Shown here: piece after piece, positions 46,197-64,000 of the stretch
Numbering within the stretch: the stretch's first letter is position 1
Layout of the letters: each line of letters starts with the position of its first letter
DNA from: Lachnospiraceae bacterium
GTDB lineage: Bacteria; Bacillota; Clostridia; Lachnospirales; Lachnospiraceae
Length of the DNA: 64,000 bases
NCBI GenBank assembly: GCA_017479935.1
Contig: JAFVBO010000124.1
Coordinates: 2,922 to 66,921 of the forward strand
Direction: 5' to 3'
The notes under the pieces: model-generated
Told to the model about the DNA's origin: nothing
The model's database searches: none
What the model saw: only the letters and a program-made list of their open reading frames with translations
Made by a program: the position numbers and the translations under genes

Positions 46197-46303
46197 GACT
46201 CCGTATTCTTCCTCTTTCCTGGCAAATGCTGGATGAAAGCAAAAGATAAAAAGAAGCGAAACCACACGAGGGCGATGCCTGGCTACAGAGTAGATAGGCA
46301 GTG

Positions 46304-46336
46304 AAAAAAGCAGAGCGTTTCCGCTCTGCTCTTTCC
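46304..46336. terminator. bidirectional terminator (shared 28-nt sequence with 59374..59404)
   Basis: AAAAAAGCAGAGCGTTTCCGCTCTGCT has an 8-bp stem, an A-run upstream and a T-rich stretch downstream. It lies 3' of the last gene of the GH3 operon. Confidence 0.7.
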
Positions 46337-46388: not shown

Positions 46389-46775
46389 CTAGCGCACTTT
46401 CTTCAATATCGCTGTGATCAACGCAAATACGAGCGCGGCGCTGAAAAGAACCATGTCGATATAAAAGTAGATGTTGATGTCGGACAGGTTTACCTGCATC
46501 AGGTTGATGGATTCCAATCTTCCGATCAGATAATAACCGAAGCAGAATGCCGTCAACGCTGCCCCGATAATGACATCGAAGCCTTTCAAATTGAACAGAA
46601 TACCCAGCAAATAGACAGCGATGGCAATTCCACCCAGGACCGGAACCAACGACGAGTAATTCCGAAGTATAGCGGGCGCATAAAAAAGCAATGCCAACGC
46701 CAGGAGAACAGCCGTCAGACCGGCCAGAAAGCTTCCCGTACGATCCATCTTGATCGTTTCTGCAGGTGATTTCAT
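46389..46775 (-). CDS. small 4-TM membrane protein (GH3-associated family)
   Basis: AAAGGAGGTG RBS plus ATG at 46775, overlapping the upstream stop (ATGA). It is similar in length, topology and the 'GYYL' motif to 60617..61009. Confidence 0.65.
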   Translation of the reverse strand: MKSPAETIKMDRTGSFLAGLTAVLLALALLFYAPAILRNYSSLVPVLGGIAIAVYLLGILFNLKGFDVIIGAALTAFCFGYYLIGRLESINLMQVNLSDINIYFYIDMVLFSAALVFALITAILKKVR

Positions 46776-47173
46776 GATTCCACCTCCTTTGTATCTCCGA
46801 AGCACGCAATCACCGATGAGATCCCCATCAGGCATCCAAGCGTCAGGTAAAGGCACACGGAGCGGTAATCGCCGTTTCGGAAGTTTAAGTCATTGTAGTG
46901 ATCGGCCACAATAGGGGCCGCATGCATAAAGATAAAACCAAGACCCACTGCGAAAATGATTGCCGTGACAAGTGGCATCAGTTTGCTATTCGTGAAGAAC
47001 GTGATCAGCTGAGCTACAATGCCAACCACCAGGATCACGATAATCTCCGTCGCGAAGGTGCGGTCCGCAAACCCCTTCGTCATGGGGCCAACGATAACGA
47101 TGACCAGTGCCAGGATGGCGGCCAGACAGCCAAAATAGGCTGGAAATGTTTTTTTCTTCGAATTTGCTTTCAT
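46772..47173 (-). CDS. small 4-TM membrane protein (GH3-associated family)
   Basis: 133 aa, 16 nt downstream of GH3-1, with four hydrophobic segments. Confidence 0.65.
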   Translation of the reverse strand: MKANSKKKTFPAYFGCLAAILALVIVIVGPMTKGFADRTFATEIIVILVVGIVAQLITFFTNSKLMPLVTAIIFAVGLGFIFMHAAPIVADHYNDLNFRNGDYRSVCLYLTLGCLMGISSVIACFGDTKEVES

Positions 47174-47189
47174 GGATCCGCTCCTCCTT

Positions 47190-50117
47190 CTATTTATTCT
47201 TCTTATCGGACAGATTCTTGCAGAACAGGATAAGCGCTGCGGCAGTCAACAGTCCGATCACCGCATCCAGTGCGATAATAGCAGTCTTCCACCAAGGCGT
47301 TTCATCGCTTACCACGATGGTTTCCTCTGAAATCAGCCCGTTGATCAGCGTGGAGTTGACGTAATTATAGTAATAGCGATGGTTCACCTCGCGGAGCACC
47401 TCATACAGATACGTATCGTTGTTGTCCACCACCAGGCTGTTCATGGTGTTGGTTCTTCTGGCCAGGCAGAACATGCTGGTTCCGGCGATCAGCGAATCCG
47501 CTGTGGGGGTTCTGTCATTCTCCGCGCCCGACGAGTCGGTGATCAGGACGCCATTAAAGCCCCATTCTCCCATCATGATACCGCGGATCAGTGTCTGCGC
47601 CACCGGGCTCATCTTCACACCGATACGGTTCATGGCCAGCATCGAACCACGAGCGCCGCCTTCGGTAAACGCAAGTTCAAAAGCCTTTAATCCGCTTTCG
47701 CGAGCTGTCTGTTCTGTCATGAACGTGCATACACCGGAACGATTCTGTTCCTGATCATTCGCAAAGAAATGCTTCGGCCCTGCGATAACGCCTTTCGCGT
47801 TCATACCTGCCACTTCTGCCGCATTCATGATACCAGTAAACAAGCCATCTTCGGAAGAATACTCAAAGTTACGGCCACCGTAAGGCGTACGGTGAATATC
47901 CAGGCCGGGAGCAAACGCCATCTGACCTCTCGCATAAATGCAATCCTCACCGTAGAAGGATCCCAGCGTGCTCATCACGTCCGTGCTCCAGCTGCTTGCC
48001 GCCAGGTTCTGGATACAATAACAGGTAGGAGAATCCTGTTCCCCATAGCGATATGCCATACCATAACCGTCCGGGCCATCCGCGTTCTTGTTGGCTGGCT
48101 TTGCCACTGTCTGGATCGCACCCTGGCCTAAGGTATCGGAGATGATTGTGGACATATCCATTACGGAAAGCTGATCAAGGAAAGAATCCCACTTTTCATC
48201 ATCATATTCCACACCGTACATATCGGCAAAGGTAATCAACTCATCTCCGACCACACCGTTTATCTGCGCATCCGTCAGGCTGTCCGTGTTGGATTGAACG
48301 TAAATGCGGCTGACCTGCGCCTTCTTGATGGCGTCGTTCATTTCCAGCGCGGCTCCCTGCGGATAAGTGCCTTCCCAGTCGGAGCGGGACAGGTACGTCA
48401 CCACGTCATTCTCATAGAAATCATTTACGTTGATGGCATAATCGCCGGTAAACTGATTGGTCACCGCGTTTCCTGTCACGGCGGAGGATGCGTAGCTGGT
48501 TGTATCCAGCGCAGCCACCTCATACACGCCAACCTTTTCGGCGTCTCCGACTACGGCTGTTCCGTCGATATCAAACAAACCGGTTGCGCCTTTCTTCGCG
48601 AGAATGTTGTTTAACGCGTCGTGCGCATTGTCGCCTAAACCAAAGTAATAGGTTCCGGCATCCAGGATGTAAGTTTTCGCGTTCTTCCAGTCATAAGAAG
48701 CCGTGTAATAACGGTTGATCCGGATTTCCAGCGTTTCGGAGGCACCAGGAGCCAAAAGACCGGTCTTTCCAAATCCGACGATCTGTACGGCTGCCTTCTC
48801 AATGCTGTTTTCCTTATCGTACTCGGTGTAAGGGCTCTGCAGATAGATCTGCGCGACCGACTTGCCGGAGTAGGTATCGCCGGTATTGGTCACCGTCACC
48901 TTCGCCACGAATTCATCAGCATCCGCGTCATAGGTAAAGCTGTCAAGCGTCTGCGAGAAGGTGGTATAGCTTAAGCCGTAACCAAACGGATAGCTGATCT
49001 CTTCCGCATAGTTCCAGTTTCCGGAAGATGCGTAGGTGCCGGCCTTTCCGTTCGCGTTGCCCTGGCCTAAAATGCAGTCTTCATAACGGGTTTCGTAGTA
49101 CTTATATCCTACATAAATGCCTTCCTGGTAAACCAGGTAGGTGTTGCTCGCGGCGCCTTCGGTATCACCGGAGAAGGTGAAACCACCCCAGTTTGCCATG
49201 GCGGGGGAGGAAAGAGAATTGACCGCGTACGTGTCCACCAGATGACCAGAAGGAGACGCCGTGCCCTTTAACAGGTTGGCCACACCGGTAAAGCCATAAC
49301 GACCGGGCTCACCGATCCACATGCAGGCGTTTACGCCGTACTCTTCTTCCTCGATCCAAGAGAGCTCCATCGCGTTGCCGGAGTTGATCAGAACGATCAC
49401 CTTGGTAAAACCTTCCTCCTGAATCATCTTCAAAAGGTCCTTCTCTTCCTGATGCAGTGCCAGTTGCGGAAGTCCATCGGCATCCTCGGTATCAAAATCC
49501 TGGCCTTCGCCGGAATCGCGCGAGAGCAACACGATCGCCGCGTCCTTATAGCCGTCAAAGCTGGCCTTTAAGGCGTCGGTATAGAAAGCAGCATTTTCCT
49601 CGCCGATTTTGGATTTGACCGTCGTCTGGTTTCCTTTTACGCGTGCCGTGGAGCTGGACGCATAAGCATTATACAGGGTTTCGTTGATGGAATAGCCCGC
49701 TTCTTCCAGGGCCGCCTTCAGGCTGACCGCCGTTTCGGCCGATACGATACCGCCGCCGGCATGGGACTTGTAGATGGGGTCCGCGCTGGCCCGGCCAAAC
49801 AGGGTGATGTTCTTCACATCTGCCGAAAGGGGCAAAGTGCCGTCGTTCTTAAACAGCACCGAGCCTTCTTCCATTTCACGAATGGCAAAAGCGATTTCAT
49901 CCGCTACCAGTTTTGCCAGATTTTCATCCGAAAGGGGACCGTACGCGCTCTCGTATACCATTTCCTCCGACATACCGCTAACCGAGCCGGATTCAATCCC
50001 TAAAACCGCGTTGATGGAACCGTCATTTTCAAAGGCGACGGAGCTCATAAACAAAAGCAGGGTCAGAACTAGCGCCAGACCAGCCGTTATGCCGCGCCAG
50101 AATACCGATTTTTTCAT
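47190..50117 (-). CDS. glycoside hydrolase family 3 protein, domain-permuted, N-terminal signal anchor and C-terminal TM anchor (GH3-1)
   Basis: The GH3 C-terminal/Fn3-like signatures come first ('VLFKNDGTLPL', 'SVAQIYLQSPY...VGFGKT.LLAPGASETLEI'). The TIM-barrel signatures come last ('GPKHFFANDQEQNR', 'WGFNGVLITDS'). The tail is 'WWKTAIIALDAVIGLLTAAALILF'. ATG at 50117 after GGAGG. Confidence 0.85.
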   Translation of the reverse strand: MKKSVFWRGITAGLALVLTLLLFMSSVAFENDGSINAVLGIESGSVSGMSEEMVYESAYGPLSDENLAKLVADEIAFAIREMEEGSVLFKNDGTLPLSADVKNITLFGRASADPIYKSHAGGGIVSAETAVSLKAALEEAGYSINETLYNAYASSSTARVKGNQTTVKSKIGEENAAFYTDALKASFDGYKDAAIVLLSRDSGEGQDFDTEDADGLPQLALHQEEKDLLKMIQEEGFTKVIVLINSGNAMELSWIEEEEYGVNACMWIGEPGRYGFTGVANLLKGTASPSGHLVDTYAVNSLSSPAMANWGGFTFSGDTEGAASNTYLVYQEGIYVGYKYYETRYEDCILGQGNANGKAGTYASSGNWNYAEEISYPFGYGLSYTTFSQTLDSFTYDADADEFVAKVTVTNTGDTYSGKSVAQIYLQSPYTEYDKENSIEKAAVQIVGFGKTGLLAPGASETLEIRINRYYTASYDWKNAKTYILDAGTYYFGLGDNAHDALNNILAKKGATGLFDIDGTAVVGDAEKVGVYEVAALDTTSYASSAVTGNAVTNQFTGDYAINVNDFYENDVVTYLSRSDWEGTYPQGAALEMNDAIKKAQVSRIYVQSNTDSLTDAQINGVVGDELITFADMYGVEYDDEKWDSFLDQLSVMDMSTIISDTLGQGAIQTVAKPANKNADGPDGYGMAYRYGEQDSPTCYCIQNLAASSWSTDVMSTLGSFYGEDCIYARGQMAFAPGLDIHRTPYGGRNFEYSSEDGLFTGIMNAAEVAGMNAKGVIAGPKHFFANDQEQNRSGVCTFMTEQTARESGLKAFELAFTEGGARGSMLAMNRIGVKMSPVAQTLIRGIMMGEWGFNGVLITDSSGAENDRTPTADSLIAGTSMFCLARRTNTMNSLVVDNNDTYLYEVLREVNHRYYYNYVNSTLINGLISEETIVVSDETPWWKTAIIALDAVIGLLTAAALILFCKNLSDKKNK

Positions 50118-50142
50118 ATTCAATCTGCCTCCTTCCGTGATT

Positions 50143-50934
50143 TTACTGTTTCAGCGTGCCATCCGGCGCGGTGCGGTTAGAGCTGGAAAGGCTTCCGCTG
50201 GCCAGATACGCGTAGCTGGAATACTGAACTGTGTTTTCATAGTCCAGGTTGCATACAACTGATGTATTTAAGGACTGTCCCTTCTCCGTGATGTTGAAGA
50301 AGAACTGGATGACGTTGGTGAGGGAGTCCGTATAGGCGACCGGTTCTGTGGAAACCGTATACTTCTTGTACTGGATCATGTCGCCGTCAGCTGAATAGTC
50401 AAAAGAATTCTGAACATAAATCGTCAACTCTCCATCCGCTTCTTCCCAGTAACCATAGTACAGCTCTACCACTTTTGTTTTACTGTTGAACTCGTCCTCT
50501 TCCGGTGTCTCACCCGCCAGATAGTCAAACATGCTGGGGATCAGGAACGTTCCAAGCCATCCCTTGATGGAACCGTCCTCATACAGATTCATCACGTAGG
50601 CAAAGTAATTTGCCAGACCATTATTGTGGTCATCCGCCGGATAGCTGACAAACTGATAGGCCACCGGCTTTTCCGCCCAGTAATCATAGTAATCGGTCGC
50701 TTCCGGATCCAGCGTCTCCCCTTCTTTTAAGAACAAGGTGTGATAGTTCACATGATCTGCCGGTATTTCCATATCCGCATACAAAGAATGATACTCAGGA
50801 TAAATCATATCCGCCCATTCCTTCTGGTCCGTCTGCTCCTGGACTTCCGAGGAATTGCCGTCACCGCAGCCAGCTAAACTACTGATACCAAGCACCAGGG
50901 CCATCAGGCCCGCTAACAGTTTTCCTTTTCTCAT
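50143..50934 (-). CDS. lipoprotein, unknown function
   Basis: ATG at 50934 overlaps the GH3-2 stop (ATGA). The N-terminus is MRKGKLLAGLMALVLGISSLAGC|GDG (lipobox). Confidence 0.7.
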   Translation of the reverse strand: MRKGKLLAGLMALVLGISSLAGCGDGNSSEVQEQTDQKEWADMIYPEYHSLYADMEIPADHVNYHTLFLKEGETLDPEATDYYDYWAEKPVAYQFVSYPADDHNNGLANYFAYVMNLYEDGSIKGWLGTFLIPSMFDYLAGETPEEDEFNSKTKVVELYYGYWEEADGELTIYVQNSFDYSADGDMIQYKKYTVSTEPVAYTDSLTNVIQFFFNITEKGQSLNTSVVCNLDYENTVQYSSYAYLASGSLSSSNRTAPDGTLKQ

Positions 50935-53900
50935 AATTCTTTCTCCTTCCCTTCCTTCACAGTGAAATATACATACAAGAACGTCGGGATCAGAGCAGCA
51001 AGACCGATCGCAATGACGATAAACCGGATCGATTTCTCCCACCAGGCCTGTACGTGGACCAACTCCACGTTCTTGGATGTTCCATTCATGGCATTGCTGT
51101 TCACGTAGGTGTACAGGATTCGGTGCGCAGCCTGACGAAGTGCTGCGTGAAGAACCGGATCTTCTTCCAGTTTCGCTTCTTCAAAGAAACCGCCATACAG
51201 CGTCGCGTCAGTCGTATCAAAGTAATCCGTACCGGCCTTTACTGCTTCTGGCGCATGGTAATAGGTGAGAAGTGCAACCGCCATATCGGTGATGGCGCAG
51301 CCTTCAAAGCCCCATTCATTGCGGAGAATCTGCGTCATGACCGGATAAGACTCTCCCACCCAGGTGCAGCCGATACGGCTGAAGGACTCCATCACGCCCA
51401 TGGATTTCGTCTTGCCTTCTTCTTTGGCAAGAATTCCCTCAAAGGCCCGCAAAGACAGCTCTCTGGCTTCCTGCTCCGTCATAAAGATGGATCCGCCATA
51501 GCGGTTGGTCTCCTGATCGTTAAAAGCAAAGTGCTTGGTGAAAGCCACGCCGCCCTTGGAGGCGTATCCTTCGCTGACCGCCGCGCCCATGATGCAGGCA
51601 ATCATCGGCTCCTCGCCGTAATACTCTCCGTTTCGTCCGGAGAATGCGTTTCTTCCAAGATTAGCCGCGGAAATGCCCCACAAGCCCGTACGTCCCAGAA
51701 GAATGCTCTCATTTCCCATCAGCTCGCCACGCTCATACTCTAACTCTCTGTTAAACGAGGCTGCACAGACCAATGTGCCTTCGTAGCAGCGAGAAGCAAT
51801 CGCGCCTTCCGTTGTCTCGCCCTTCCAGTTGGTATAGCCCGTATAGCCGTTGTACCACTTGTCGCCGTCATACTGCAAAACAGCCGAATACCAGCCGATC
51901 GGACCATCGCCGTCCTTGGATCCGGGGTAACTGATGGACGTGCTGGCATAAGTGAAGCCGTTGCCTGCTGCCACAATCTTTGCCATATCGTCCGCGGACA
52001 TCTGGTCCAGGATCATGTCCCAGGCCTCATCATTATAATCGGCGCCCATCATCATGGACACCTGGTACTCTGTCCCAGCCCCATTCGTGATGCCAAAGGC
52101 AGCTTCCACATCCAGGCTTCCTGCCGAATAATCCTTTCCGTTCACACTTGTCTGGCCGATCATTTCCTTCAGCATTGCTTCCGTTGCTGTCAGCTTGCTG
52201 CTGGTGCGACCGTTTCCTTCGCCTTCCACGATGGTCGGGAACGTATTCCAGTCATTTCTGGTTACGTAGGTAACCTTCTCACCCTCAGACAGCCAGTAGT
52301 TGATATCGGCATCCTGAAGCTGATTGGTGATCGTCTCTCCCGTGTAGCGAGAGATGGAATAGGTTGTTTCGTCACGGGAAGACTGGTTAAACGACCACAC
52401 CTTCGCGGCATCGCCTTCCGCATCCATCTTCTCTTTGTTTACAGACACGCCGTCCTGTGCCTTCTTCGCCAGCACGTTGTTTAACGCGTCATGTGCGCCG
52501 TTTCCGAGTGCAAAATAATGTTTTCCCTCTGAAAGGATATAACCGCCTTCACCATTGTTCGCCTTGGAATCCCAACTGACAATGTCATACAAGCTCACCG
52601 TGATAGAAAGCGTCTCGCTCTCTCCGGGTGCCAGATTCTTCGTCTTTTCAAAGCCCGCCAGCTGGATCGCCGACTTCTCGCAGCCGTTTTCGATATCCGC
52701 CTGTGTATACGGCGTGGACGCATAAATCTGAACCACGTCCTTCCCGGCCACATCTCCTTTGTTTGTCACCTTTACCTGAAAGGTGTAGCTTTTCTCTTCT
52801 TCATTCCATGTAGGTTCGCCCACCAGCTCCTGGTCAAATTCGGTGTAGGAAAGGCCATAACCAAAGGTATATGCCACCTCTTCCCCATAATTCCAAAGGC
52901 CTGTGGAGGCAAATACGCCCGCTTCGGATTCCGCGTTGCCCTGACCTAAGACAACATCCTCGTACCGGGTTTCATAGTACCGATATCCTACGTAAATACT
53001 TTCCTTCTGAGAGACATACCAGATGGCCCGGAAGGGGTTTTCGCTGCCAACCGTATAGCCAGCTTCATTGGCCGCGAAATAAGCCTCCACTTCTTCCGCA
53101 TTCGCGTATGCCACACTTCCCATATCCTGTGCAGAAGGGGAAGACAGGGAATGCTCGGACCACAAATCGATCAGCTTCGCGGAAGGGTTGACCGCACCCG
53201 TCAGGACATCCACCACACCGTCAATTCCGTTGTAGCCAAGGCCGCCCACCTGGATCACCGCATCAATCTTCTCGTCGTTCTGAACGCCAGCCAGACCAAT
53301 CTGATGGTTCGTGTTCAGCATCAGGATCACTTTGCCAAACCCAGCGTTCTCGGCCATTTCAATCAGAGCCTTTTCACTCTCCGTCAATTCCAGAGAAGAT
53401 ACCCCATAAACCGCTTCGCTTGTGCCTGTCTGACCGCTTCCTGTATCATAGATCGGCTGATCCGCCTCACCAGACCAAAGGTCAAATCCTTCGCCGCAGT
53501 TCCGGCGCAGCACGATGATGGCTACATCGTTGTACTCTGCCATGGACGCCTTCGCCTCCGCAGAAATATTGTCAGGATGAACTTCGCCGATGATCAGATC
53601 GCCCACCAGGCCATAGTAACCAGCAGGGTTATTCTGGTTCACACCGCTGTTCGCATAGAAATTGTACATCGTCATGTTGACGTCAAATCCGGCTTCGGAA
53701 AGTGCCTGGTCAAAATGCTTGCAGAACGAGTTAGCATTTGCCACCTGGCCCGCTCCTGCATCCATGCCGTAGACCAGATCGGCTGATGCCTGCCCAAGAA
53801 GCGTAATCTTTGTCTTTGTTCCATCTTTTTCCGCCGCGATCGGGAGTGCTGCGTTCTCGTTCTTTAACAGCACCGTTCCCTCTCCCACCGCCTTGCGGAT

Positions 53901-54128
53901 ATGCTCAATCTTCGCCTCCATAAGCTCGGTGGTATTGGCGTAATCCGCCTTAAAGTACTGAGCGTCTGTTTCCTCGTCCAGCGACACCACTTCGGTTCCG
54001 CTTGTGTTGAAATAATCGTGAATATACGGGGAAATGCCAAAGCTGTACACGCCTATCGACATGGCAAGCGCCACGGCAAATGCGGACAGCGTAACGGCTG
54101 ACAAGGCCCGTGTTACTCGTCTCTTCAT
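50931..54128 (-). CDS. glycoside hydrolase family 3 protein, domain-permuted, doubly anchored (GH3-2)
   Basis: 1065 aa, paralog of GH3-1. Carries 'VLLKNENAALPI', 'VVQIYASTPY...LAGFEKTKNLAPGESETLSI', 'FTKHFAFNDQETNR' and 'WGFEGCAITDM'. The C-terminal TM is 'IRFIVIAIGLAALIPTFLYVYF'. Confidence 0.85.
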   Translation of the reverse strand: MKRRVTRALSAVTLSAFAVALAMSIGVYSFGISPYIHDYFNTSGTEVVSLDEETDAQYFKADYANTTELMEAKIEHIRKAVGEGTVLLKNENAALPIAAEKDGTKTKITLLGQASADLVYGMDAGAGQVANANSFCKHFDQALSEAGFDVNMTMYNFYANSGVNQNNPAGYYGLVGDLIIGEVHPDNISAEAKASMAEYNDVAIIVLRRNCGEGFDLWSGEADQPIYDTGSGQTGTSEAVYGVSSLELTESEKALIEMAENAGFGKVILMLNTNHQIGLAGVQNDEKIDAVIQVGGLGYNGIDGVVDVLTGAVNPSAKLIDLWSEHSLSSPSAQDMGSVAYANAEEVEAYFAANEAGYTVGSENPFRAIWYVSQKESIYVGYRYYETRYEDVVLGQGNAESEAGVFASTGLWNYGEEVAYTFGYGLSYTEFDQELVGEPTWNEEEKSYTFQVKVTNKGDVAGKDVVQIYASTPYTQADIENGCEKSAIQLAGFEKTKNLAPGESETLSITVSLYDIVSWDSKANNGEGGYILSEGKHYFALGNGAHDALNNVLAKKAQDGVSVNKEKMDAEGDAAKVWSFNQSSRDETTYSISRYTGETITNQLQDADINYWLSEGEKVTYVTRNDWNTFPTIVEGEGNGRTSSKLTATEAMLKEMIGQTSVNGKDYSAGSLDVEAAFGITNGAGTEYQVSMMMGADYNDEAWDMILDQMSADDMAKIVAAGNGFTYASTSISYPGSKDGDGPIGWYSAVLQYDGDKWYNGYTGYTNWKGETTEGAIASRCYEGTLVCAASFNRELEYERGELMGNESILLGRTGLWGISAANLGRNAFSGRNGEYYGEEPMIACIMGAAVSEGYASKGGVAFTKHFAFNDQETNRYGGSIFMTEQEARELSLRAFEGILAKEEGKTKSMGVMESFSRIGCTWVGESYPVMTQILRNEWGFEGCAITDMAVALLTYYHAPEAVKAGTDYFDTTDATLYGGFFEEAKLEEDPVLHAALRQAAHRILYTYVNSNAMNGTSKNVELVHVQAWWEKSIRFIVIAIGLAALIPTFLYVYFTVKEGKEKEL

Positions 54129-54309
54129 GATTCTCCTCCTTGTTCTTTCGTTTCGTCATGCCTGTAAAGGGAAAACGAATTCGTTCCGGCCGGGATCTTC
54201 CCGTATCCAGGCAACATCCGTGTCTCCAGAATAAAAAGAAGCCCCCGCAAAAGCAAGGACTCCTTCATAATTTGATTTTTGGTCGACATTTTCTGCTGGC
54301 AATTTTCTT

Positions 54310-55662
54310 TTACATGGACGGAAAAAGTATATTGACCTTAAACAATCCGTTATCCGTATCCAGCGAGAGTGATCCATCATACTGCTCTACAATACGCCGA
54401 ATACTTTTCATCCCAAACCCGTGAAAGTTAGTATCCTCCTTGCCCGTAACAGGAAGACCACCTTCCATGATAATCTTTCCTTCGTAGTAGTTCCGCACGT
54501 TCACGACCAGCATCTCATTTACCCGCTTAATATTCAAGGCAATCACGCGTTTCTCCGGGATTTCAATTTTTCTCACGGCTTCAATCGCATTGTCCAGGAT
54601 ATTCCCGAACAGAATGTACAGATCTGTGTCACGGATGAAATTCAGGCGCTCCGCTTCCGCCAGGCAGGTAAGGCGGATACCGTAGTGGGAACAGATTAAG
54701 CTCTTTTCAGTCAATATAACATCCAATGTCTCGTTTCCGGTTTTGACCACCGAATCGTAGATAGAAATTGCTTTTTCGATATCCTTCAGTTCTTGATCAT
54801 CGATGCCGCGGCCATGGCGCCAGCTTTTGACCATATGCTTTAAATCATGGCACTTCTGGTTGATGATGTCCACCGACTCCTTCGAGGCAAGGTACTGTTT
54901 TTCTTTTTCTCCCAGCAGATATGAAAATAGCAAAATCTCATCCCGCAGCTGTTCGTTTCTTAGCATGTTGAACTGTAATACCAAAGAGGTGATACAGCCA
55001 AATGCCATGAAAACCATAAAGATCACGTAGTAAACCTGGTCAAAAGCCTCCCTGCTGTGGTACACCACTACCGCGTTTAAAATGATTACCGAGATCTCTA
55101 TCAGAAAAGCATACAGGAAAAAGCTGATGTTTTGCAGATGAAGCGTTTCCTCTTTCTTCAGCCTCTCCGCAAACAATAGACCAAACACCAGATAGACGAC
55201 ACTATAGAAAGTCAGATCACTCAGAAAATAGAAAATGGAGGTGATCTGTACGGAACTGTTCCCATAACTTCCGATCAGCATATCTTTCACCGGGCTGGCA
55301 TAATCCCCTCCCCCTATGAAAAAGGAAGACGATGCAACAATCAGTTGGGAAATAGCATAGGCAATCTCTTTCACGGTGAAAGCAGCAAAACAGCAAAAGA
55401 GAACAGTCAGCCATGATTCGTCGTAGCAAAACTTCATGAACAGAACCGTGACAACAAACAAAACCAGAAATAAAAAGGATGCATAGAAGGCGTTGTATGC
55501 AAGGATGGGAAAGAAAAAAGCCACCAATATGCACACCATATACGAAAAGACCACTCGAGGCACGTAGCCTTCCTTTCTTTTCCGTGATGTCACAAACATA
55601 TGCTCCGCCACTAAAAGCTCCAGCATAAACAACATTTTATTGAGCCATAATTGCGTAAACAT
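54310..55662 (-). CDS. AgrC/HPK10-like sensor histidine kinase (GHKL)
   Basis: About 6-7 N-terminal TM segments, H-box 'CHDLKHMV', N-box 'LFGNILDNAIEA' and G-box 'GFGMKSIRRIVEQYDGSL'. Confidence 0.85.
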   Translation of the reverse strand: MFTQLWLNKMLFMLELLVAEHMFVTSRKRKEGYVPRVVFSYMVCILVAFFFPILAYNAFYASFLFLVLFVVTVLFMKFCYDESWLTVLFCCFAAFTVKEIAYAISQLIVASSSFFIGGGDYASPVKDMLIGSYGNSSVQITSIFYFLSDLTFYSVVYLVFGLLFAERLKKEETLHLQNISFFLYAFLIEISVIILNAVVVYHSREAFDQVYYVIFMVFMAFGCITSLVLQFNMLRNEQLRDEILLFSYLLGEKEKQYLASKESVDIINQKCHDLKHMVKSWRHGRGIDDQELKDIEKAISIYDSVVKTGNETLDVILTEKSLICSHYGIRLTCLAEAERLNFIRDTDLYILFGNILDNAIEAVRKIEIPEKRVIALNIKRVNEMLVVNVRNYYEGKIIMEGGLPVTGKEDTNFHGFGMKSIRRIVEQYDGSLSLDTDNGLFKVNILFPSM

Positions 55663-55663
55663 G

Positions 55664-56371
55664 TCAGGTTATCTCCCCCCAGTATTCGTTCAGTCTCTGG
55701 ATAAAATCTTTTCTCTTGGGCCGACTCATCTCTAACGTCTCCTCCCCAACCAGAACCGTATAGCCCTCTACTTTTCTGACATGACGCAGATTTACGAGAT
55801 AGCAGGCGTTGCACCGGGTAAAGGTTACCATCTTAGGATTGCTCTCCAATTGTTTTAACGATCCGTAAACTGTATACTTACATTCTCTTGTGTGGTAAAT
55901 CAGCTGATGCCCCTGCGTTTCGATATACGTGATGTCCTGCGTATTTAACCCCACAAGGCCTTTACCGGTTGTCAGAACCACTTCTACTCCCCGGCGGCTC
56001 TCAATGTACCGGCAGAGTTTATCCATCTTCATGGCGAAATCATAGTAGGAAACCGGTTTGACTACAAAATCAAAGGCATGCACCTCGTACCCTTTGATAG
56101 CCATCTGTGCCAGGTTCGTGACAAAGATTAACGGCACCTGACTGTCCAGTTCCCGCAGCTTCCGCGAAGCTTCCATTCCGTCCATGAATGGCATATCAAT
56201 GTCCATGAATACCATGTCATAGTCCGATGGATAGTTGTTCAAAAAAATCACAGCGTTTTTGTGACGGAACACCTGCAGGGGCTGATTGTTCTCTTTCTCG
56301 TACCGGTGCAGGAAATCCTCTAGTGTTCCTGCTGCATCCGCTTCGTCTTCTACAATTGCTATTTTCAGCAT
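55664..56371 (-). CDS. LytTR-family response regulator
   Basis: ATG at 56371. The receiver is 'MLKIAIVEDE...DMVFMDIDMP' and the C-terminal LytTR domain is '..ITYIETQGHQLIYHT....YTVYGSLKQLE'. Confidence 0.9.
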   Translation of the reverse strand: MLKIAIVEDEADAAGTLEDFLHRYEKENNQPLQVFRHKNAVIFLNNYPSDYDMVFMDIDMPFMDGMEASRKLRELDSQVPLIFVTNLAQMAIKGYEVHAFDFVVKPVSYYDFAMKMDKLCRYIESRRGVEVVLTTGKGLVGLNTQDITYIETQGHQLIYHTRECKYTVYGSLKQLESNPKMVTFTRCNACYLVNLRHVRKVEGYTVLVGEETLEMSRPKRKDFIQRLNEYWGEIT

Positions 56372-59373: not shown

Positions 59374-59404
59374 AAAAAAAGCAGAGCGTTTCCGCTCTGC
59401 TTTT
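59374..59404. terminator. bidirectional terminator (shared 28-nt sequence with 46304..46336)
   Basis: AAAAAAAGCAGAGCGTTTCCGCTCTGCTTTT lies 3' of the PAP2 gene that ends the second GH3 operon. Confidence 0.7.
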
Positions 59405-59476: not shown

Positions 59477-60610
59477 TTAACATATGATATGCGTTCTCCA
59501 TGATTTCTCATGGTCATCCTCCTGTCTCGACCAGCTCCAAAGCTTTCGGATGCCCCATCTCGCCACCATCACAATCAGATAGGCTGCCAGGCCTCCGATC
59601 ACCACATCTGTAAGGAAGTGAGCTCCCGCCATCACTCGTCCCAGGCCCACGATCACGGTAAGGAGCGTGGGAACTAAGAAGCAGGCTGCCCTGCCGGTGC
59701 GCCTCATATCCGGAAACAGATCCGGCAAACAGAGAGCTGCATAGGAGACTGCTGCCGCATAAGTATGCCCAGAAGGAAAAGATTTGCAGGTATCCGACAG
59801 CCCAAGGAACCGTTCGGCAGCAGAAAGCGTCCCTGCTGCCAGTTCCCCGGTTCTACTGAGGACTCTGGATCCACGAAAAACATACCACGGGGTATACTCG
59901 GAAAAGTCCCCGATGACATTCATCGTTCGAAAGCGCACGCGTCCCGCCGGACCCTTGATCGCCTCGATCATCACCGTGTAGAACAGAATGGCTATCAGGA
60001 TTACCACAGCAACCTGTACCAGTCTGTCTACAACCTCTTTCCTAAGCCGGTAGAAACAAAGGATCAGCAAGACGGCCAGAAGCGCTGCCAGAACAGCCTG
60101 CAGCCACGTGGTCCCGGGAACGGACGAAACCAGTTCTTTCGTCTGGCTTGCACTTTCTATGACGTTGCCAGCCATCGGCAGGCCATTTTCTTCCATCAGC
60201 AGCGCTTCCTTCAAGAAGCGCTGTGGATAATCAAAATACTCATGCACCGTGCTGTATGCTTCATAGACGCAGCCCGCTCCGGACAACATGAGCAGCGCAC
60301 TCTTCAAAAGCTTCCAGCTCTTCCCATCCCCCGCCCGGAAGATGAACAGCCGGTCCCCCTCACGCGTCCGTGCGACAGCCACAAACAGAATGGCCGTCGC
60401 AACAGCGCCAAACAGGTAGATCAGAGAAAAACCGGACATCTCGATAAAGAGAGCGAAGCGGTTGACCGTATAATATTTTCCGGCAGGAAGCCACTTACCG
60501 GCAAGAGCCGTGGATATTTCCAGGTCATAAAACGACCCAATCGCCAGAAGCACTGCCGCCATCAGAAGGATGCTTCCTGTTATCTGATTATTTCTTTGCC
60601 CGTTTTTCAT
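59477..60610 (-). CDS. PAP2-family membrane phosphatase
   Basis: Polytopic. The C-terminal region has 'SFPSGHTYAA' and 'RVMAGAHFLTDVV' (PAP2 motifs PSGH and SR.....H...D). Confidence 0.8.
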   Translation of the reverse strand: MKNGQRNNQITGSILLMAAVLLAIGSFYDLEISTALAGKWLPAGKYYTVNRFALFIEMSGFSLIYLFGAVATAILFVAVARTREGDRLFIFRAGDGKSWKLLKSALLMLSGAGCVYEAYSTVHEYFDYPQRFLKEALLMEENGLPMAGNVIESASQTKELVSSVPGTTWLQAVLAALLAVLLILCFYRLRKEVVDRLVQVAVVILIAILFYTVMIEAIKGPAGRVRFRTMNVIGDFSEYTPWYVFRGSRVLSRTGELAAGTLSAAERFLGLSDTCKSFPSGHTYAAAVSYAALCLPDLFPDMRRTGRAACFLVPTLLTVIVGLGRVMAGAHFLTDVVIGGLAAYLIVMVARWGIRKLWSWSRQEDDHEKSWRTHIIC

Positions 60611-60616: not shown

Positions 60617-61009
60617 CTACTTCTCAAGACGGCAGAAGTTGGCTGCAATCAAAAGCAGGATCGATATGACAGCCGCTGCCGCGAAAAGGATAAAGGACGC
60701 CATAGTTCCCGCGTATCCCAACACTCCGGTGAAAAGATACCCCAGATAATCCGCGCTGAAGGAGAGGTAATAGCCAACAGCCGCTCCGGATGCGACGGCC
60801 GAAATCAGGATCGGGAGCCCTCCTAACGGGGCAAAGAGCGTAACCAGCTCCCCCGCAAGGGCAACACCTAACAGGATCACGACAATGGTATTGACGTTAC
60901 GGATGGCATTTCCGTTTACTGTATAAGCGATGATCGCTATCACAGTCAGAACCGCGGCAAGAAGTACCAGAACGCCGCCGGGTCCTCGTTTACTAAGCAG
61001 GTTCTTCAT
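60617..61009 (-). CDS. small 4-TM membrane protein (GH3-associated family)
   Basis: GGAGG RBS plus ATG at 61009 (Met41 of ORF 60617..61129), 5 nt after the GH3-3 stop. It is a paralog of 46389..46775. Confidence 0.65.
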   Translation of the reverse strand: MKNLLSKRGPGGVLVLLAAVLTVIAIIAYTVNGNAIRNVNTIVVILLGVALAGELVTLFAPLGGLPILISAVASGAAVGYYLSFSADYLGYLFTGVLGYAGTMASFILFAAAAVISILLLIAANFCRLEK

Positions 61010-61014
61010 ATCAC

Positions 61015-64000
61015 TTAAGCCTCCTTCTGGGATTTGTCTTTCGACAGACTTCTCACGTACAGAACGAACATCAACAGGGCAAGAGCTCCCAAAGCCGCAT
61101 CCAGGGCAAACAAGGCTGTCTTCCACCAAGGTTCGATGGTAACCACCCTCGTGTCCGCGCTGACACCGTTCATCGCCGCGCCGTTGATGAACTCATACAA
61201 CGTCTTCTTGGAAGCGACACGGCAAGCGTAGGCAAGCAGCGGATCCTTCGAAATGATCTCCGCGCTGACGGTTCCATAAAGGATCGCATCACTCTGGGCA
61301 TACTCTGTGCCCGCAAGCGGTCCGGTCAGTTCGCTGGTATATGGACCGCAGAAACCATCCGCTACGTTCGAATCCATGAATGCCGTACCTGCGAGGCAAC
61401 TCTCCGGTCCTTCCATGAAACCGGAAGCCTTGTCGGTCGATCCGCCCAGCGTATCGGTAATCGAGAAGGCATGGCTGCCCCACTCTTCTACCAACATGCC
61501 GGTCATCAGATCATATTCCGAGGAGCCGTAGGTTGTGCCGATTCGTGCAAAGGTTGTCATGGTTCCCTTGGCCTCGCCGATGGCAAACGCTCCTTCAAAT
61601 GCCCGAAGGTCATTTTCCCGGGCCTGCTGCTCATTCATGAATGTAGCCAACCCCTGTCGATTGGTCTCCTGATCATTAAACGCAAAGTGCTTCGGGCAGA
61701 GTGCGAATCCCTTGGAAGCCGCACCCGAGGTAAGGGAAGCTCCCATGTAATAATCGTGGACCGCATCCTCAGAGAGGTACTCGGTATTCCGGCCGGCGTA
61801 AGGCGTCCTCTTGTAATCCAGGCCGCAGCCCCAGGCAGCGTGACAGCCATTGTAGAAACCGTCGTTGCCGATCATCTTTCCCTGCTCCCAGGCAAGATCC
61901 TTGTTAAACGTGCAGGCCAGAAGCGTCTGCGTTCCAAACATACGGGAATTGTACTTCTGGATGGTCTCATCTTCCGCCTTCGCATAGGTCGCGTTATTTC
62001 CGGAAGGGCCGTCCAGCTGGTAAGATCCCGGATACGCGACGTTCACGCATGTGTAGGAGTGATGCTTGCCATCGCCAAAGAAATACGCCAGATCCTTATA
62101 GGTCAGCTGATCCAGGAAGTCCTCCCACAGAGGGTCGTCCCAGCTGACGCCGATCATCGTGGCAGCCGCGATGGCTGGCTTCTCGCCTTCCGCCAGGTCC
62201 TTTTCCGCCACACCAAACGCCGGCACCTTGCCGTTATCACCATAGAACGCCAGGAACTGAGCGATGGAATCGGTCGTTCCGTTCTCATATCGGAACTTGG
62301 AAAGTCCCGCGATGACAGCCGCATTGGCCGTCAGGCCTGAGTATGCCTTTGGCCAGGTGCCCTCCCAGTCGTTTCTGGAGAGGTACGTGACCGTGCCAGG
62401 CATGTAATAGTTCAGATCCGCATCATCAAACCGATTGGTGATCTCCGCACCGGTATACTCCGAGGTTGTGTATGTAACGAAGTCGGCATCCGCTTCCGTC
62501 CACGCAAAGACCTTCGAAGCATCTCCGTCATAGTCCATGCCGCCTGCGGCCGTATACCCCTTCTTCGCCAGAACATTGTTTAAGGCGTCATGGGCGCCGT
62601 TTCCAAGAGCGAAGTAATAATCGCCCGCGTCCATGAAGTAGCTTTTCGCGTTCGTATAGTCATAGCTGGCATACAAATGGCTGTCGTATTCGATCTCCAG
62701 CGTCTCCGACTCCCCGGGAGCCAGCTCTTTCGTTTTCTCAAAGGCAACCAGCGAGATGGCAGATTTCTCCACCTTGTTGTCAATGTCGTACTGTGTGTAA
62801 GGTGTCTGCACATAGAGCTGAACCACATGCTTGCCAGCCTTGTCCCCGGTATTGGTTACCTTAACCGTTGCCCGTTCGTGTTCCCGATCGACATCGATGA
62901 GTTCTTCTTTAAAGGTCGTATAGCTTAAGCCATAGCCGAAGCTGTACTCCACTTCATCCGCGTAATTCCAGGCAGTTCCACTCGTCGCTCCGTTCTTGCC
63001 CGTTGCGTTGCCACGGCCCAGAATCGTGTCCTCATAGCGGGTCTCATAATACCGATAGCCCGTGTAAATGCCTTCCGCATACACCACATAATACCCGGAC
63101 TGTGCGGCAACAACCTTGGTCTTGTCCACGATTTCATCCTGGTTAGTCCAGGCAAAGTTGCCTGCATTGATCACGGCCGGCGCAGACGCCGGATTGGCCG
63201 CGAACACTTCCTCCAGATGTCCGGAGGGTGAAATCTTTCCGGTCAGGACATCCGCCAGGCCCTGAATACCGGTATAGCCTGCGCCGGGCATGGTGATGAT
63301 GGCATCCGCATACTCCTTTAACGCACTCGTATTGCCCAGCACATAGTCGCTGTTCAGTACCACAATCACCTTCTTAAAGCCGGCTTCCTTCGCCTCCTTC
63401 GCAAGGTCCACCTCATAATCCTGGACCTGCAGATAATTGTGAATCCCATCACCGTCTCCCAAGCCTTCCGGCGTCGTGGGGATATCCGCTCCTTCCCCGG
63501 CTCTTCTTCCCAGAACGACGATGGCTGCATCCTTATAATCCTCATAGGATGCACGTACTTCCTCAGTGTACTCCGAAAGCGGAACTTCGCCAATGATGGC
63601 GGTGGGATTTCTTCTTCCTGCCGCTGCTCTGCGCAGCTCGCTCGCCTTGTAGAACTCCACCATTACGGGATTGACATTTTTCCCATTATTCGTAAGAACT
63701 TCTTCCAGCGTCAGGCAGGCGAAGTTATCCGGTTCACGCGAGGACGGAAGGCCAAAATCACCGCGGTTTAAGGAACCGCCGCCTCCCGATGTGTCGTAGG
63801 CAAAATCTACGCTGCCTCGTCCGAACAGGGAAATGTTCACTTCATTTTCCGTGAGCGGCAAGGCTCCTTCTTTATTGTAAAGAAGGACGCAGCCTTCCGA
63901 ACCTATCTGAGAAATCAAGGCTTTCTTAGCCTCCAGAAGCTCGGCAGCCGTCTGATAGTCACAACTGTAATACTGTGCATTCGTCTCATCCCCCTCCGTA
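61015..64000 (-). CDS. glycoside hydrolase family 3 protein, domain-permuted, C-terminal TM anchor (GH3-3; 5' end outside window)
   Basis: The frame stays open to the window edge (..ETNAQYYSCDYQTAAELLEAKKALISQIGSEG.. aligns with the GH3-2 N-terminal region). Carries 'CPKHFAFNDQETNR', 'WGSHAFSITDT' and the tail 'WWKTALFALDAALGALALLMFVLYV'. Confidence 0.85.
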   Translation of the reverse strand, partial: TEGDETNAQYYSCDYQTAAELLEAKKALISQIGSEGCVLLYNKEGALPLTENEVNISLFGRGSVDFAYDTSGGGGSLNRGDFGLPSSREPDNFACLTLEEVLTNNGKNVNPVMVEFYKASELRRAAAGRRNPTAIIGEVPLSEYTEEVRASYEDYKDAAIVVLGRRAGEGADIPTTPEGLGDGDGIHNYLQVQDYEVDLAKEAKEAGFKKVIVVLNSDYVLGNTSALKEYADAIITMPGAGYTGIQGLADVLTGKISPSGHLEEVFAANPASAPAVINAGNFAWTNQDEIVDKTKVVAAQSGYYVVYAEGIYTGYRYYETRYEDTILGRGNATGKNGATSGTAWNYADEVEYSFGYGLSYTTFKEELIDVDREHERATVKVTNTGDKAGKHVVQLYVQTPYTQYDIDNKVEKSAISLVAFEKTKELAPGESETLEIEYDSHLYASYDYTNAKSYFMDAGDYYFALGNGAHDALNNVLAKKGYTAAGGMDYDGDASKVFAWTEADADFVTYTTSEYTGAEITNRFDDADLNYYMPGTVTYLSRNDWEGTWPKAYSGLTANAAVIAGLSKFRYENGTTDSIAQFLAFYGDNGKVPAFGVAEKDLAEGEKPAIAAATMIGVSWDDPLWEDFLDQLTYKDLAYFFGDGKHHSYTCVNVAYPGSYQLDGPSGNNATYAKAEDETIQKYNSRMFGTQTLLACTFNKDLAWEQGKMIGNDGFYNGCHAAWGCGLDYKRTPYAGRNTEYLSEDAVHDYYMGASLTSGAASKGFALCPKHFAFNDQETNRQGLATFMNEQQARENDLRAFEGAFAIGEAKGTMTTFARIGTTYGSSEYDLMTGMLVEEWGSHAFSITDTLGGSTDKASGFMEGPESCLAGTAFMDSNVADGFCGPYTSELTGPLAGTEYAQSDAILYGTVSAEIISKDPLLAYACRVASKKTLYEFINGAAMNGVSADTRVVTIEPWWKTALFALDAALGALALLMFVLYVRSLSKDKSQKEA

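Follow-up and report, generated by a model that had tools for sequence, protein, structure and literature searches.

Predicted membrane-tethered GH3 enzymes with permuted domains and their four-transmembrane neighbours in a Lachnospiraceae genome

Results

The window, by which we mean the whole 64,000-nucleotide stretch of DNA that was analysed, carries three minus-strand permuted GH3 paralogs, GH3a, GH3b and GH3c, at two loci (Table 1). At the first, the GH3b ATG is preceded by the ribosome-binding site AGGAGGAGAATC, the start of the lipoprotein gene overlaps the GH3b stop in an ATGA, gaps of 19 nt and 16 nt separate the lipoprotein from GH3a and GH3a from TM4a, and TM4a and TM4b again share an ATGA. 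At the second, GH3c is followed after 5 nt by TM4c and, after a further 6 nt, by a PAP2 gene. These junctions bear out the initial annotation, in which the genes were described as chained by ATGA overlaps or short gaps. An alternative ATG for GH3a lies at 50117 and would give a product of 975 aa. GH3c is cut by the window edge, and its complete ORF, on genome contig C26, encodes 1064 aa. Each locus ends in a terminator hairpin, and the 22 nt concerned are present genome-wide only in these two copies. A further terminator-like hairpin separates the stop codon of the kinase gene from the start of GH3b. The promoter of the GH3 operon should fall within 54129-54235. The operon looks nested, with a lipoprotein-GH3a-TM4a cassette set between GH3b and its own partner, TM4b.

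Table 1. Features of the two GH3 loci and of the regulatory genes upstream of the first
Feature	Coordinates	Strand	Description
Intrinsic terminator	46303..46330	-	9-bp stem, GAAA loop, T run; ends the GH3b-to-TM4b operon
TM4b	46389..46775	-	128-aa divergent tetraspan; cognate to GH3b; displaced to operon end
TM4a	46772..47173	-	133-aa tetraspan; GH3a partner
GH3a	47190..50123	-	977 aa; permuted GH3; N-terminal signal, C-terminal TM helix, pre-helix motif WWKT
Lipoprotein	50143..50934	-	263 aa; lipobox LAGC; rare unnamed family
GH3b	50931..54128	-	1065 aa; permuted GH3; N-terminal hydrophobic signal, C-terminal TM helix, pre-helix motif WWEK; operon gene 1
Terminator-like hairpin	54235..54266	-	between kinase stop and GH3b start
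AgrC-like histidine kinase	54310-55662	-	directly upstream of GH3 operon; Pfam HATPase_c_5
LytTR response regulator	55664-56419	-	upstream of GH3 operon beside kinase; Pfam Response_reg, LytTR
Second terminator hairpin copy	59380..59401	-	ends GH3c-TM4c-PAP2 locus; identical 22 nt
PAP2-family membrane phosphatase	59477..60610	-	final gene of second locus; Pfam PAP2, E 1e-14
TM4c	60617..61009	-	130-aa tetraspan; GH3c partner
GH3c	61015..64000 and beyond	-	permuted GH3; C-terminal TM helix, pre-helix motif WWKT

In all three enzymes Pfam finds the domains in the order Glyco_hydro_3_C, Fn3-like, Glyco_hydro_3, every match above its gathering score, and the motifs KHF..NDQE.NR and WGF.G..ITD are both present and invariant across the three. 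The reversed domain order is therefore real, but the suggestion that it marks only a few enzymes was wrong: it is already known from GlyA1 (PDB 5K6L) and characterises a described subfamily with solved structures (PMC5104943). The best PDB relatives of GH3a are the permuted GH3s 5K6L (E 1e-65) and 5WUG, and the closest characterised relatives of the GH3s are beta-glucosidases, xylosidases and arabinopyranosidases active on plant glycosides. We predict that the operon enzymes are surface sugar-cleaving GH3s of this known reversed-order type. Among the 79 GH3-family ORFs of at least 700 aa in the source genome, every one retains Lys-His, 78 have the nucleophile Asp and 74 have the acid/base Glu.

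Hydropathy places hydrophobic segments at residues 12-30 and 949-967 of GH3a, at 9-27 and 1036-1054 of GH3b, and at the C-terminus of GH3c, and in each of the three the C-terminal helix is followed by a basic tail. More generally, a conserved juxtamembrane T/V-P-W-W-Q-T/P precedes the GH3 C-terminal helix and a basic tail lies behind it, and one position of the helix is G/A at 95%. Over the 54 paralogs in the genome that have this helix, the K+R content per 15 residues is 1.09 before it and 3.70 after it, a positive-inside distribution from which it follows that the tail is cytoplasmic and the catalytic body outside. It is very probable that the enzymes are tethered at the surface, as the initial annotation had judged, and not freely secreted. 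The further proposal that they are anchored at both ends stands in part. Both terminal hydrophobic segments are real by hydropathy, but the GH3a N-terminus has a 16-residue h-region followed by S-V-A, a plausible signal-peptidase site, and because this segment could be a cleavable signal peptide, stapling at both ends is only plausible.

TM4a, TM4b and TM4c each have four hydrophobic segments, and the AlphaFold2 model of TM4a is a confident four-helix bundle (pLDDT 87, pTM 0.82). They belong to a family of about 1,200 clusters at 50% identity, undescribed so far, that is matched by no Pfam or NCBIfam model; TM4a is the genome's best match to the family profile and TM4b matches it at E 1e-15. 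In an alignment of 35 sequences no column is conserved at 90% or more. The family has no invariant residue, and conservation is highest at small residues within helices (G/A in TM2 at 91%, A/G in TM3 at 84%). Together with the small residue in the GH3 tail helix, this conservation would be a signature of helix packing. A polar residue in mid-TM2 is uncommon (E 16%, D 6%). Across the family the N-terminus, loop 2 and the C-terminus have a combined K+R count of 4.3, compared with 0.7 in loops 1 and 3, and both termini are thus predicted to be cytoplasmic; the extracellular loops are conserved, with an abundance of Asp, Asn, Trp and Phe (DRTFS; SDVWNGVNFIGGN). Searching PDB sequences with the family profile returned nothing significant, and a Foldseek search of the PDB with the TM4a model gave no match at E <= 0.001, the nearest analogues, all of them weak, including FcεRI beta, TARP and Cav gamma, with TM-scores of 0.55-0.63 and E no better than 0.04.

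The association between GH3 and 4-TM genes is conserved well beyond the window, as the initial annotation had supposed. In a sample of GH3 homologs drawn from one genome per species, examination of 84 motif-bearing GH3 ORFs recovered 33 directly adjoining 4-TM genes, spread over Clostridia, Bacilli, Bifidobacterium and Coriobacteriia. Viewed from the 4-TM gene, where close homologs of TM4a too lie directly downstream of a permuted GH3, adjacency is near-obligate: a GH3 with a C-terminal helix was fused or lay no more than 13 nt upstream in 8/8 genome matches and in 43 of 46 metagenome ORFs, and the other three, with four that had no GH3 match, stood beside a GH3 remnant, were split fragments or lay near contig ends. 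In the source genome 22 of 23 4-TM copies adjoin or are fused to a GH3. Conversely, an adjacent or fused partner accompanies 21 of the 54 GH3s with a C-terminal helix, against 0 of the 25 without one. Since the remaining 33 of the 54 have no adjacent partner detected by HMM (one to three of them have a divergent candidate), anchoring in itself does not require the partner; GH3s that have no partner also carry the WW motif.

Natural fusions join the two families in both orders. A 4TM-GH3 fusion of 1161 aa (C10:5892-9377), with a cytoplasmic linker of about 8-12 residues to the GH3 N-terminal helix, recurs in 17 or more full-length clusters, with identities as low as 40%; the reverse, GH3-4TM, is found on one metagenome contig with an 8-residue linker. 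Both orders agree with the predicted topologies. In another genome (G313), a GH3b ortholog (68.6% identity) is followed directly by a TM4b ortholog (59.8% identity), and the cognate pairing of these two is preserved across taxa. Covariation over 97 GH3/4-TM pairs (effective number 68) gave no excess coupling of the partner to the GH3 terminal helices relative to the catalytic body (p = 0.76 and 0.56).

The lipoprotein, which the initial annotation had listed among the chained genes, and the PAP2 phosphatase (a single phmmer match) occur once each in the genome and so are not general parts of the GH3/4-TM module. The lipoprotein matches no Pfam or NCBIfam model and its homologs form only 8 clusters; in LytTR/kinase modules, too, homologs that share about 40% identity immediately precede C-terminally anchored GH3s. 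Its AlphaFold2 model is mediocre (pLDDT 66, pTM 0.69), beta-rich and weakly lipocalin-like (4GZV, E 0.012).

The 3.7-Mb source genome holds 75 full-length permuted GH3 genes, an unusual number that makes up 6.5% of its DNA, alongside the 23 4-TM matches; the expansion is absent from forty relatives. These genes are old, catalytically intact paralogs, and their divergence is deep (median identity 33%). There are 43 AgrC-like kinase paralogs at E<=1e-20, most of them adjoining a LytTR regulator gene. At E<=1e-5, 31 of 46 kinase matches lie within 5 kb of a GH3, and an AgrC-like sensor kinase lies within 5 kb of 37 of the 79 GH3-family ORFs. Further GH3s adjoin CBM- or Ig-repeat surface proteins. 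A cassette of LytTR regulator, kinase, GH3 and 4-TM genes recurs in other genomes. Taken together, the paralog, kinase and surface-protein context is a nutrient-foraging pattern.

Discussion

We consider it probable that the module consists of an exported, tethered GH3 and a dedicated, non-catalytic 4-TM membrane subunit, placed under a two-component switch and served by uptake through transporters elsewhere. The GH3 would be a retaining exo-beta-glycosidase of the GlyA1-type permuted subfamily that, once exported, stays attached to the outside of the cytoplasmic membrane through its C-terminal stop-transfer helix, whose basic tail is cytoplasmic; the signal segment at its N-terminus may be retained in the membrane too. 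Its 4-TM companion, about 130 aa long, would pack against the GH3 TM helix or helices, and would most likely stabilise, position or cluster the enzyme at the membrane. With no column at or above 90% conservation and small helix residues as its best positions, it does not resemble an enzyme. Activation of the operon is probably due to the adjacent AgrC-like kinase and LytTR regulator, and the sugars freed from the presumptive substrates would be taken up through transporters encoded elsewhere.

Adjacency and fusion show functional coupling, which is compatible with a structural, transport, signalling or biogenesis role. It is unlikely that the 4-TM protein is itself a small channel or transporter, as an oligomer or with GH3 helices, that imports the released sugar or aglycone and so couples hydrolysis with uptake. 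The modules do lack transporter genes (only four GPH-like genes exist genome-wide, none near a GH3), a Roseburia/Lachnospira/Agathobacter clade within the same GH3 family has a GPH (MFS_2) transporter gene directly downstream, and the conserved extracellular loops with their Asp, Asn, Trp and Phe would suit such a function. However, homology to transporter families is lacking: searches of Pfam and NCBIfam gave nothing consistent, the PDB-sequence search nothing significant, hhalign against the GPH neighbours a probability of 0.2%, and matches to the ECF S-component fold were poor (TM-score about 0.3), while neither a conserved intramembrane polar residue nor an invariant column is present. A slightly poorer prospect, which draws on the example of dedicated partners for C-terminal sorting signals, is that the 4-TM protein may be a biogenesis or sorting factor that inserts, retains or processes the C-terminal WW-helix-basic-tail signal. 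The resemblance of that element to sorting signals and the strict tie of the partner to the C-terminal helix would fit, but in the partner no residue is invariant or looks catalytic, and it is therefore no processing enzyme of the sortase or exosortase kind, many GH3s with the helix function without an adjacent partner, and 1:1 fusion proteins suit a stable subunit better than a catalytic chaperone.

It seems quite improbable that the 4-TM protein signals to the AgrC-like kinase, within the membrane, whether the surface GH3 is substrate-bound or turning over, with the GH3 as co-sensor. AgrC-type kinases have polytopic sensor domains and lack a large ectodomain, and both the proximity of so many kinase paralogs to GH3 genes and the recurrent four-gene cassette speak for a relay; yet many kinase-linked GH3 modules (the Flg_new-lipoprotein and long Ig-tailed subfamilies) have no 4-TM gene, 8 of 21 partnered GH3s have no kinase within 8 kb (on contigs that are short), and the examined flanks of many 4-TM loci from other taxa hold none. 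Envelope remodelling, in which the GH3, 4-TM and PAP2 proteins would be directed at wall glycans or lipid-linked sugars of the cell itself instead of at nutrient acquisition, had been raised by the initial annotation and appears very improbable. The enzymes do sit at the membrane surface and a lipid-phosphate phosphatase ends the second locus, but the PAP2 and lipoprotein genes lie outside the conserved module, the nearest characterised relatives act on plant glycosides, and a family of 75 diverged, old and intact paralogs, most of which are linked to a sensor of their own or to CBM/Ig-repeat surface proteins, makes such a role unlikely.

A dedicated non-catalytic subunit has an architectural analogy, and only that, in the eukaryotic tetraspan subunits (FcεRI beta/MS4A, TARP/claudin-like, Cav gamma, sarcospan), small four-helix proteins packed against a larger partner's TM helices, with no sequence relationship or significant structural match to TM4a. 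As in gram-positive polysaccharide utilisation loci (gpPULs; Sheridan et al. 2016, PMC5320581), glycoside hydrolase genes are here combined with a dedicated regulator, in the window a LytTR two-component system. Unlike the gpPULs tabulated in that paper, each of which has a transport system, the GH3/4-TM modules have none and are centred on a single exo-glycosidase family.

The enzymes themselves match the GlyA1-type permuted subfamily (PDB 5K6L-5K6O; Ramirez-Escudero et al. 2016, PMC5104943), of which 5WUG and BrGH3A (PMC11233000) are further members. They share its order of alpha/beta sandwich, FnIII and TIM barrel and its catalytic Asp, Glu and Lys-His, and have their best sequence matches among solved structures there (E 1e-65). 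GlyA1 as described has no TM segment, the words ‘transmembrane’ and ‘signal peptide’ being absent from PMC5104943, and its C-terminus is a lectin-like domain of about 120 aa, whereas the window GH3s have an N-terminal signal, a short linker, a C-terminal TM helix and a tetraspan partner. The link between C-terminally anchored GH3s and LytTR regulators was already noted in 2010 for Butyrivibrio proteoclasticus B316, in which secreted GH3s with a C-terminal TM helix lie beside LytTR regulators (Kelly et al. 2010, PMC2914790). B316 and the window thus both pair a LytTR two-component regulator with an exported GH3 of this kind; the B316 paper devotes one sentence to three loci, giving no 4-TM partner or mechanism, whereas the genome studied here has 75 full-length permuted GH3 genes.

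Organization of the two GH3 loci

The minus-strand region from 54128 to 46389 forms a single tightly packed operon, whose junctions in gene order are an ATGA overlap, gaps of 19 nt and 16 nt, and a second ATGA overlap. It carries two GH3 enzymes of permuted domain order (GH3b and GH3a), a lipoprotein, and two small proteins with four transmembrane (TM) helices, hereafter tetraspans (TM4a and TM4b). The GH3/4-TM pairing noted to recur at 60617-64000 does so as GH3c and TM4c. Both loci end in an identical 22-nt hairpin (46309-46330 and 59380-59401), AGCAGAGCGGAAACGCTCTGCT, with a T run behind it; it occurs nowhere else in the genome, and the sequences flanking the two copies are not alike. The kinase encoded directly upstream of the operon (HATPase_c_5 by Pfam, with a polytopic N-terminus in translation) is paired with a regulator carrying Response_reg and LytTR domains, and together they constitute an AgrC/LytTR-type two-component system of the HPK10 class.

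Features of the GH3 operon and of the second GH3 locus
Feature	Position	Strand	Length or remark
GH3b	50931-54128	-	1065 aa
Lipoprotein	50143-50934	-	263 aa
GH3a	47190-50123	-	977 aa
TM4a	46772-47173	-	133 aa
TM4b	46389-46775	-	128 aa
Operon terminator (stem-loop and T run)	46330-46303	-	
Terminator-like hairpin between operon and upstream kinase gene	54266-54235	-	
GH3c	61015 to past window edge	-	1064 aa in full contig
TM4c	60617-61009	-	partner gene in second locus
PAP2 phosphatase	59477-60610	-	second locus, with GH3c and TM4c

Permuted GH3 enzymes with a hydrophobic segment at each end

Pfam matches, all above gathering thresholds, run in the order Glyco_hydro_3_C, Fn3-like and Glyco_hydro_3 (TIM barrel) along GH3a, GH3b and GH3c, which are 37-42% identical to one another. 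The KH pair and the NDQE.NR, ITD nucleophile and GEG.D motifs are common to all three, and D863 (the xxTD nucleophile), K784-H785 and E206 (GH3a numbering) are invariant across them; E206 is the putative acid/base, assigned from the GEG.D motif of TnBgl3B rather than by structural superposition. Among 79 GH3 ORFs of the genome, the nucleophile Asp is kept in 78, the Lys-His pair in 79 and the acid/base Glu in 74. By both domain content and catalytic residues, the three paralogs are members of CAZy GH3. The nearest NCBIfam equivalogs (arabinopyranosidase, beta-glucosidase and xylosidase/arabinosidase) all score far under their cut-offs.

The top two PDB matches, 5K6L (GlyA1; E 1e-65) and 5WUG (E 6e-65), are both permuted GH3s, with conventional TnBgl3B (2X40; E 1e-61) only narrowly behind and other conventional beta-glucosidases also close. 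In the genome as a whole, 75 ORFs are co-linear with the permuted profile and two conventional GH3s align out of order. Domain order and sequence closeness both point to the GlyA1-type permuted subfamily. The reversal read in the initial annotation was thus real, but its supposed restriction to a few enzymes was not: because the closest structures are permuted GH3s and the order is already published, it marks a described subfamily (PMC5104943) and is no novelty.

By hydropathy, the only predictor used here for TM segments, each enzyme has one hydrophobic segment per end, and the proposed double anchor is plausible. The N-termini are basic, and mean K+R across the 54 paralogs of this genome with a C-terminal TM helix (C-TM GH3s) is 1.09 over the 15 residues preceding that helix and 3.70 over the 15 that follow, which predicts a catalytic body outside the cell and a C-terminal tail in the cytoplasm. 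At the N-terminus, a hydrophobic h-region of about 16-24 uncharged residues leads into a semi-conserved G-x-x-(I/L)-A-(N/M), behind which stands an (I)N..LG motif. The former may be a site of signal-peptidase cleavage or an element kept next to the membrane; clear, ordinary AXA or lipobox signals open the paralogs that have no C-terminal helix. The stretch GG(V/Q)IANENAPQI(S/N)GFL is strongly conserved right behind the N-terminal hydrophobic segment in GH3 paralogs and in fusion proteins P0156-P0175 (there at residues about 135-165), and might likewise be cut by signal peptidase (V-I-A then N) or persist as a docking element next to the membrane. At the other end, one Trp is present in nearly all C-TM GH3s, and a WW motif is over-represented in the subfamily that has partners; the WW motif was rejected as a partner-specific docking signal since it occurs also in GH3s without a partner.

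A tetraspan family linked to membrane-anchored GH3s

TM4a, TM4b and TM4c share only 19-22% identity and form one family with 32 proteins whose genes directly follow those of GH3 homologs in other genomes. The family has no matching Pfam or NCBIfam model, and no significant match was obtained among PDB sequences or PDB folds. Fold searches with the tetraspan and the lipoprotein returned nothing at E <= 0.001 for either, the weak top matches of the tetraspan being eukaryotic tetraspan auxiliary subunits. Searched against 1.84 billion representatives, the family profile retrieved 1,227 clusters at E <= 1e-3 and 435 at <= 1e-10, nearly all of 125-150 aa; larger proteins with the domain are mostly gene-calling chimeras (integrase, tRNA-synthetase anticodon domain, glutamine synthetase), and three of the larger proteins carry Big_3.

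An AlphaFold2 model yields a confident four-helix bundle (pLDDT 87, pTM 0.82), with both termini predicted by the positive-inside rule to be cytoplasmic and with the semi-conserved DRTFS (loop 1) and SD(V/I)WNGVNFIGGN (end of TM3 and loop 3) facing outward. Not one column of a 35-sequence alignment is conserved at >= 90%; conservation is highest at small residues of TM2 and TM3, and one position of the GH3 tail helix is G/A at 95%. We also considered, and rejected, an acidic TM2 residue pairing with an Asp of the tail helix: the TM2 position is E in 16% and D in 6%, its proposed counterpart is Q/D/N in 56%, and the two do not covary.

The pairing of 4-TM genes with GH3s, first seen in this one stretch, extends to other genomes. 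Beside the 84 motif-bearing GH3 ORFs that were inspected, 33 immediately adjacent 4-TM genes were recovered, from Clostridia, Bacilli, Bifidobacterium and Coriobacteriia, and in three other genomes all eight 4-TM matches have a C-TM GH3 directly upstream. Within this genome, 22 of 23 tetraspan copies adjoin a GH3 (mostly downstream of it, five upstream) or are fused to one, and a partner is present for 21/54 GH3s with a C-terminal helix versus 0/25 without. Metagenomes were scanned with a 7-sequence subfamily alignment, the full alignment having no stretch conserved enough; in 40 loci, many from the same species, 43 of 46 4-TM ORFs with a GH3 in the locus either follow it within 13 nt or are fused to it. 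The remaining three, and four ORFs without a GH3 match, stand beside a GH3 remnant, are split fragments or are close to contig ends. Covariation between the two proteins (mutual information, permutation z-scores, APC) revealed no extra coupling of the terminal helices relative to body columns in 97 pairs (effective number 68), a set too small for this purpose and dominated by phylogeny.

Natural fusions join the two proteins. A 1161-aa 4TM-GH3 fusion is encoded in this genome at C10:5892-9377, and at least 17 full-length clusters, with identities as low as 40%, keep the arrangement, with only 8-12 residues between tetraspan TM4 and the GH3 N-terminal helix. The reverse order occurs on a single metagenome contig (L126:2124-5444; one 1106-aa frame, 8-residue linker), which may be either a real fusion or the product of a one-base misassembly where two genes meet in an ATGA-type junction. 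With linkers this short in both orders, tetraspan TM4 would neighbor the GH3 N-terminal helix, and TM1 the tail helix.

Genome G313 (L086-L091) is a 1.3-Mb, 99%-complete assembly from another family of the same class, with ~10 permuted GH3 genes and 6 tetraspans. Its adjacent orthologs of GH3b (68.6% identity) and TM4b (59.8%) indicate that TM4b is GH3b's own partner, and the window operon reads as a lipoprotein-GH3a-TM4a cassette placed between GH3b and TM4b. A similar cassette, with a lipoprotein ~40% identical, stands alone at another locus. At 60-69% identity, the G313 pair is far closer than paralogs inside one genome, which suggests that orthologous modules have been shared or transferred between distant gut taxa.

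Genome-wide expansion of GH3s and regulators

The 75 full-length co-linear permuted GH3 ORFs total 243 kb, or 6.5% of a 3.73-Mb, 98% complete genome; in this fragmented assembly (139 contigs, 3% estimated contamination) paralog counts could shift slightly. The window corresponds to C26:2922-66921 of this assembly. Pairwise identity has a median of 33%, a nearest-paralog median of 47% and a maximum of 76%, and the paralogs are old. Three architectures are found: (a) enzymes with a C-terminal helix and a tetraspan, (b) enzymes with a C-terminal helix and, ahead of them, a Flg_new/Big_3/He_PIG lipoprotein, and (c) proteins of 1,200-1,400 aa that have Ig-like tails but lack the C-terminal helix. 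All three are represented among the 37 GH3 ORFs that have an AgrC-like kinase within 5 kb, and most of the ~43 AgrC-like kinase paralogs adjoin a LytTR regulator gene. LytTR regulators beside secreted GH3s with a C-terminal helix were noted previously (Kelly et al., 2010; PMC2914790).

This expansion is absent in 40 relatives from the same family and order, of which only one carries a tetraspan, in a single copy, together with three to four permuted GH3s. In a class-wide sample scored for at most 10 candidates per genome, the tetraspan was detected in at least 3 of 399 genomes.

Ahead of tetraspan-less C-TM GH3s on contigs C137, C84, C124, C132, C6 and C32 (L136-L141) come 450-550-aa lipoproteins made up of Big_3, Flg_new (Listeria-Bacteroides repeat) or He_PIG Ig-like domains, apparently a second type of accessory surface protein. 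The conventional-order GH3s at C20:28256-31537 and C138:3727-6693, of which one has a CBM-like C-terminus, each immediately precede a tetraspan and permuted GH3 pair; on C131 and C110, proteins recognized by eye as Flg_new-like repeats plus CBM occupy that upstream position. Beyond the window, the ORF at C80:77495-78268 is a chimera of a LytTR-type receiver, lacking its DNA-binding domain, and the last three tetraspan helices; the simplest explanation is that a deletion collapsed a regulator-kinase-GH3-4TM module and left this remnant.

A proposed role for the tetraspan

The reading that best fits these observations is that each enzyme would be an exo-glycosidase tethered at the surface, and the tetraspan its dedicated subunit, itself non-catalytic and packed against one or both of the enzyme's TM helices. 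Perhaps the tetraspan instead relays a signal to the neighboring kinase; this idea is weakened because kinase-linked modules often have no tetraspan. Or, perhaps it is itself a transporter, as the lack of transporter genes in the modules might suggest, together with the GPH transporters that fill the same slot in a sister clade. This too is weakened, because the tetraspan has no homology to any transporter and no conserved polar residue inside the membrane. TM4a does give weak matches to MFS_2 (E 1e-3) and TIGR00792, but a fragment or relative of GPH/MFS_2 was dismissed as chance: MFS_2 matches only one of 35 members, and hhalign against the GPH neighbors returns 0.2% probability. By sequence and fold, the tetraspans would belong to none of GPH/MFS_2, SMR, SemiSWEET or ECF S-components.

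It is tempting to speculate that the tetraspan and the two terminal GH3 helices together form a six-helix unit that catches the product and passes it across the membrane beneath the active site. We regard this as a long shot. Such a unit would explain how ~75 surface glycosidase genes can occur without transporter genes, and would amount to a hydrolysis-coupled uptake device in which the tetraspan is a small sugar channel of a new class.

Gut and rumen bacteria have many permuted GH3 enzymes, which, to our knowledge, have so far been studied only as soluble, truncated proteins. If the tethered-enzyme reading is correct, many of them would be held at the membrane in the cell with a dedicated tetraspan subunit named in no database, with consequences for the way in which they are best expressed, assayed and modelled. 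The reversed GH3 order and the link between LytTR and C-TM GH3s are already known; we found no mention of the tetraspan in the literature, and an accessory membrane subunit would be an addition to surface glycosidases of which we found no description. With 75 old, intact paralogs of one exo-glycosidase family in 6.5% of 3.7 Mb, about half near their own AgrC/LytTR sensor, the genome would on this reading be a library, made by nature, of enzymes paired with sensors for dietary glycosides.

Comparison with known systems

The GH3 tail, with WW-x-x, a helix and a K-rich end, resembles the C-terminal sorting signals of sortase, exosortase and rhombosortase systems. These systems need a dedicated processing enzyme with invariant catalytic residues, whereas the tetraspan is only ~130 aa and has no column at >= 90%; it does not fit that description. 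The GH3 beta-glucuronidase SN243 also has a signal peptide and a C-terminal TM helix (bioRxiv 10.1101/2022.04.25.489410), and was set aside as a permuted relative, as its numbering (K318/H319, D415) and the cited NagZ-subgroup dyad point to a conventional GH3.

With the gram-positive PUL (Sheridan et al., 2016), the window modules share a hydrolase and a regulator. The gram-positive PUL also has a carbohydrate transporter, whereas the window operon and most GH3 modules have none, so that on gene content they would fall outside that definition. A genome screen for GPH-like genes, in which ABC and PTS systems were not covered systematically, found four, none near a GH3. In a Roseburia/Lachnospira/Agathobacter-like clade of the same membrane-anchored GH3 family, a ~515-aa GPH/MFS_2 transporter lies directly downstream of the GH3 in place of the tetraspan (L045, L047, L057, L058, L060, L074, L076, L077 and L080). 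If our reading of the GH3/sensor expansion is correct, it would parallel, in a Gram-positive, the many PULs and many sensors on which Bacteroides relies.
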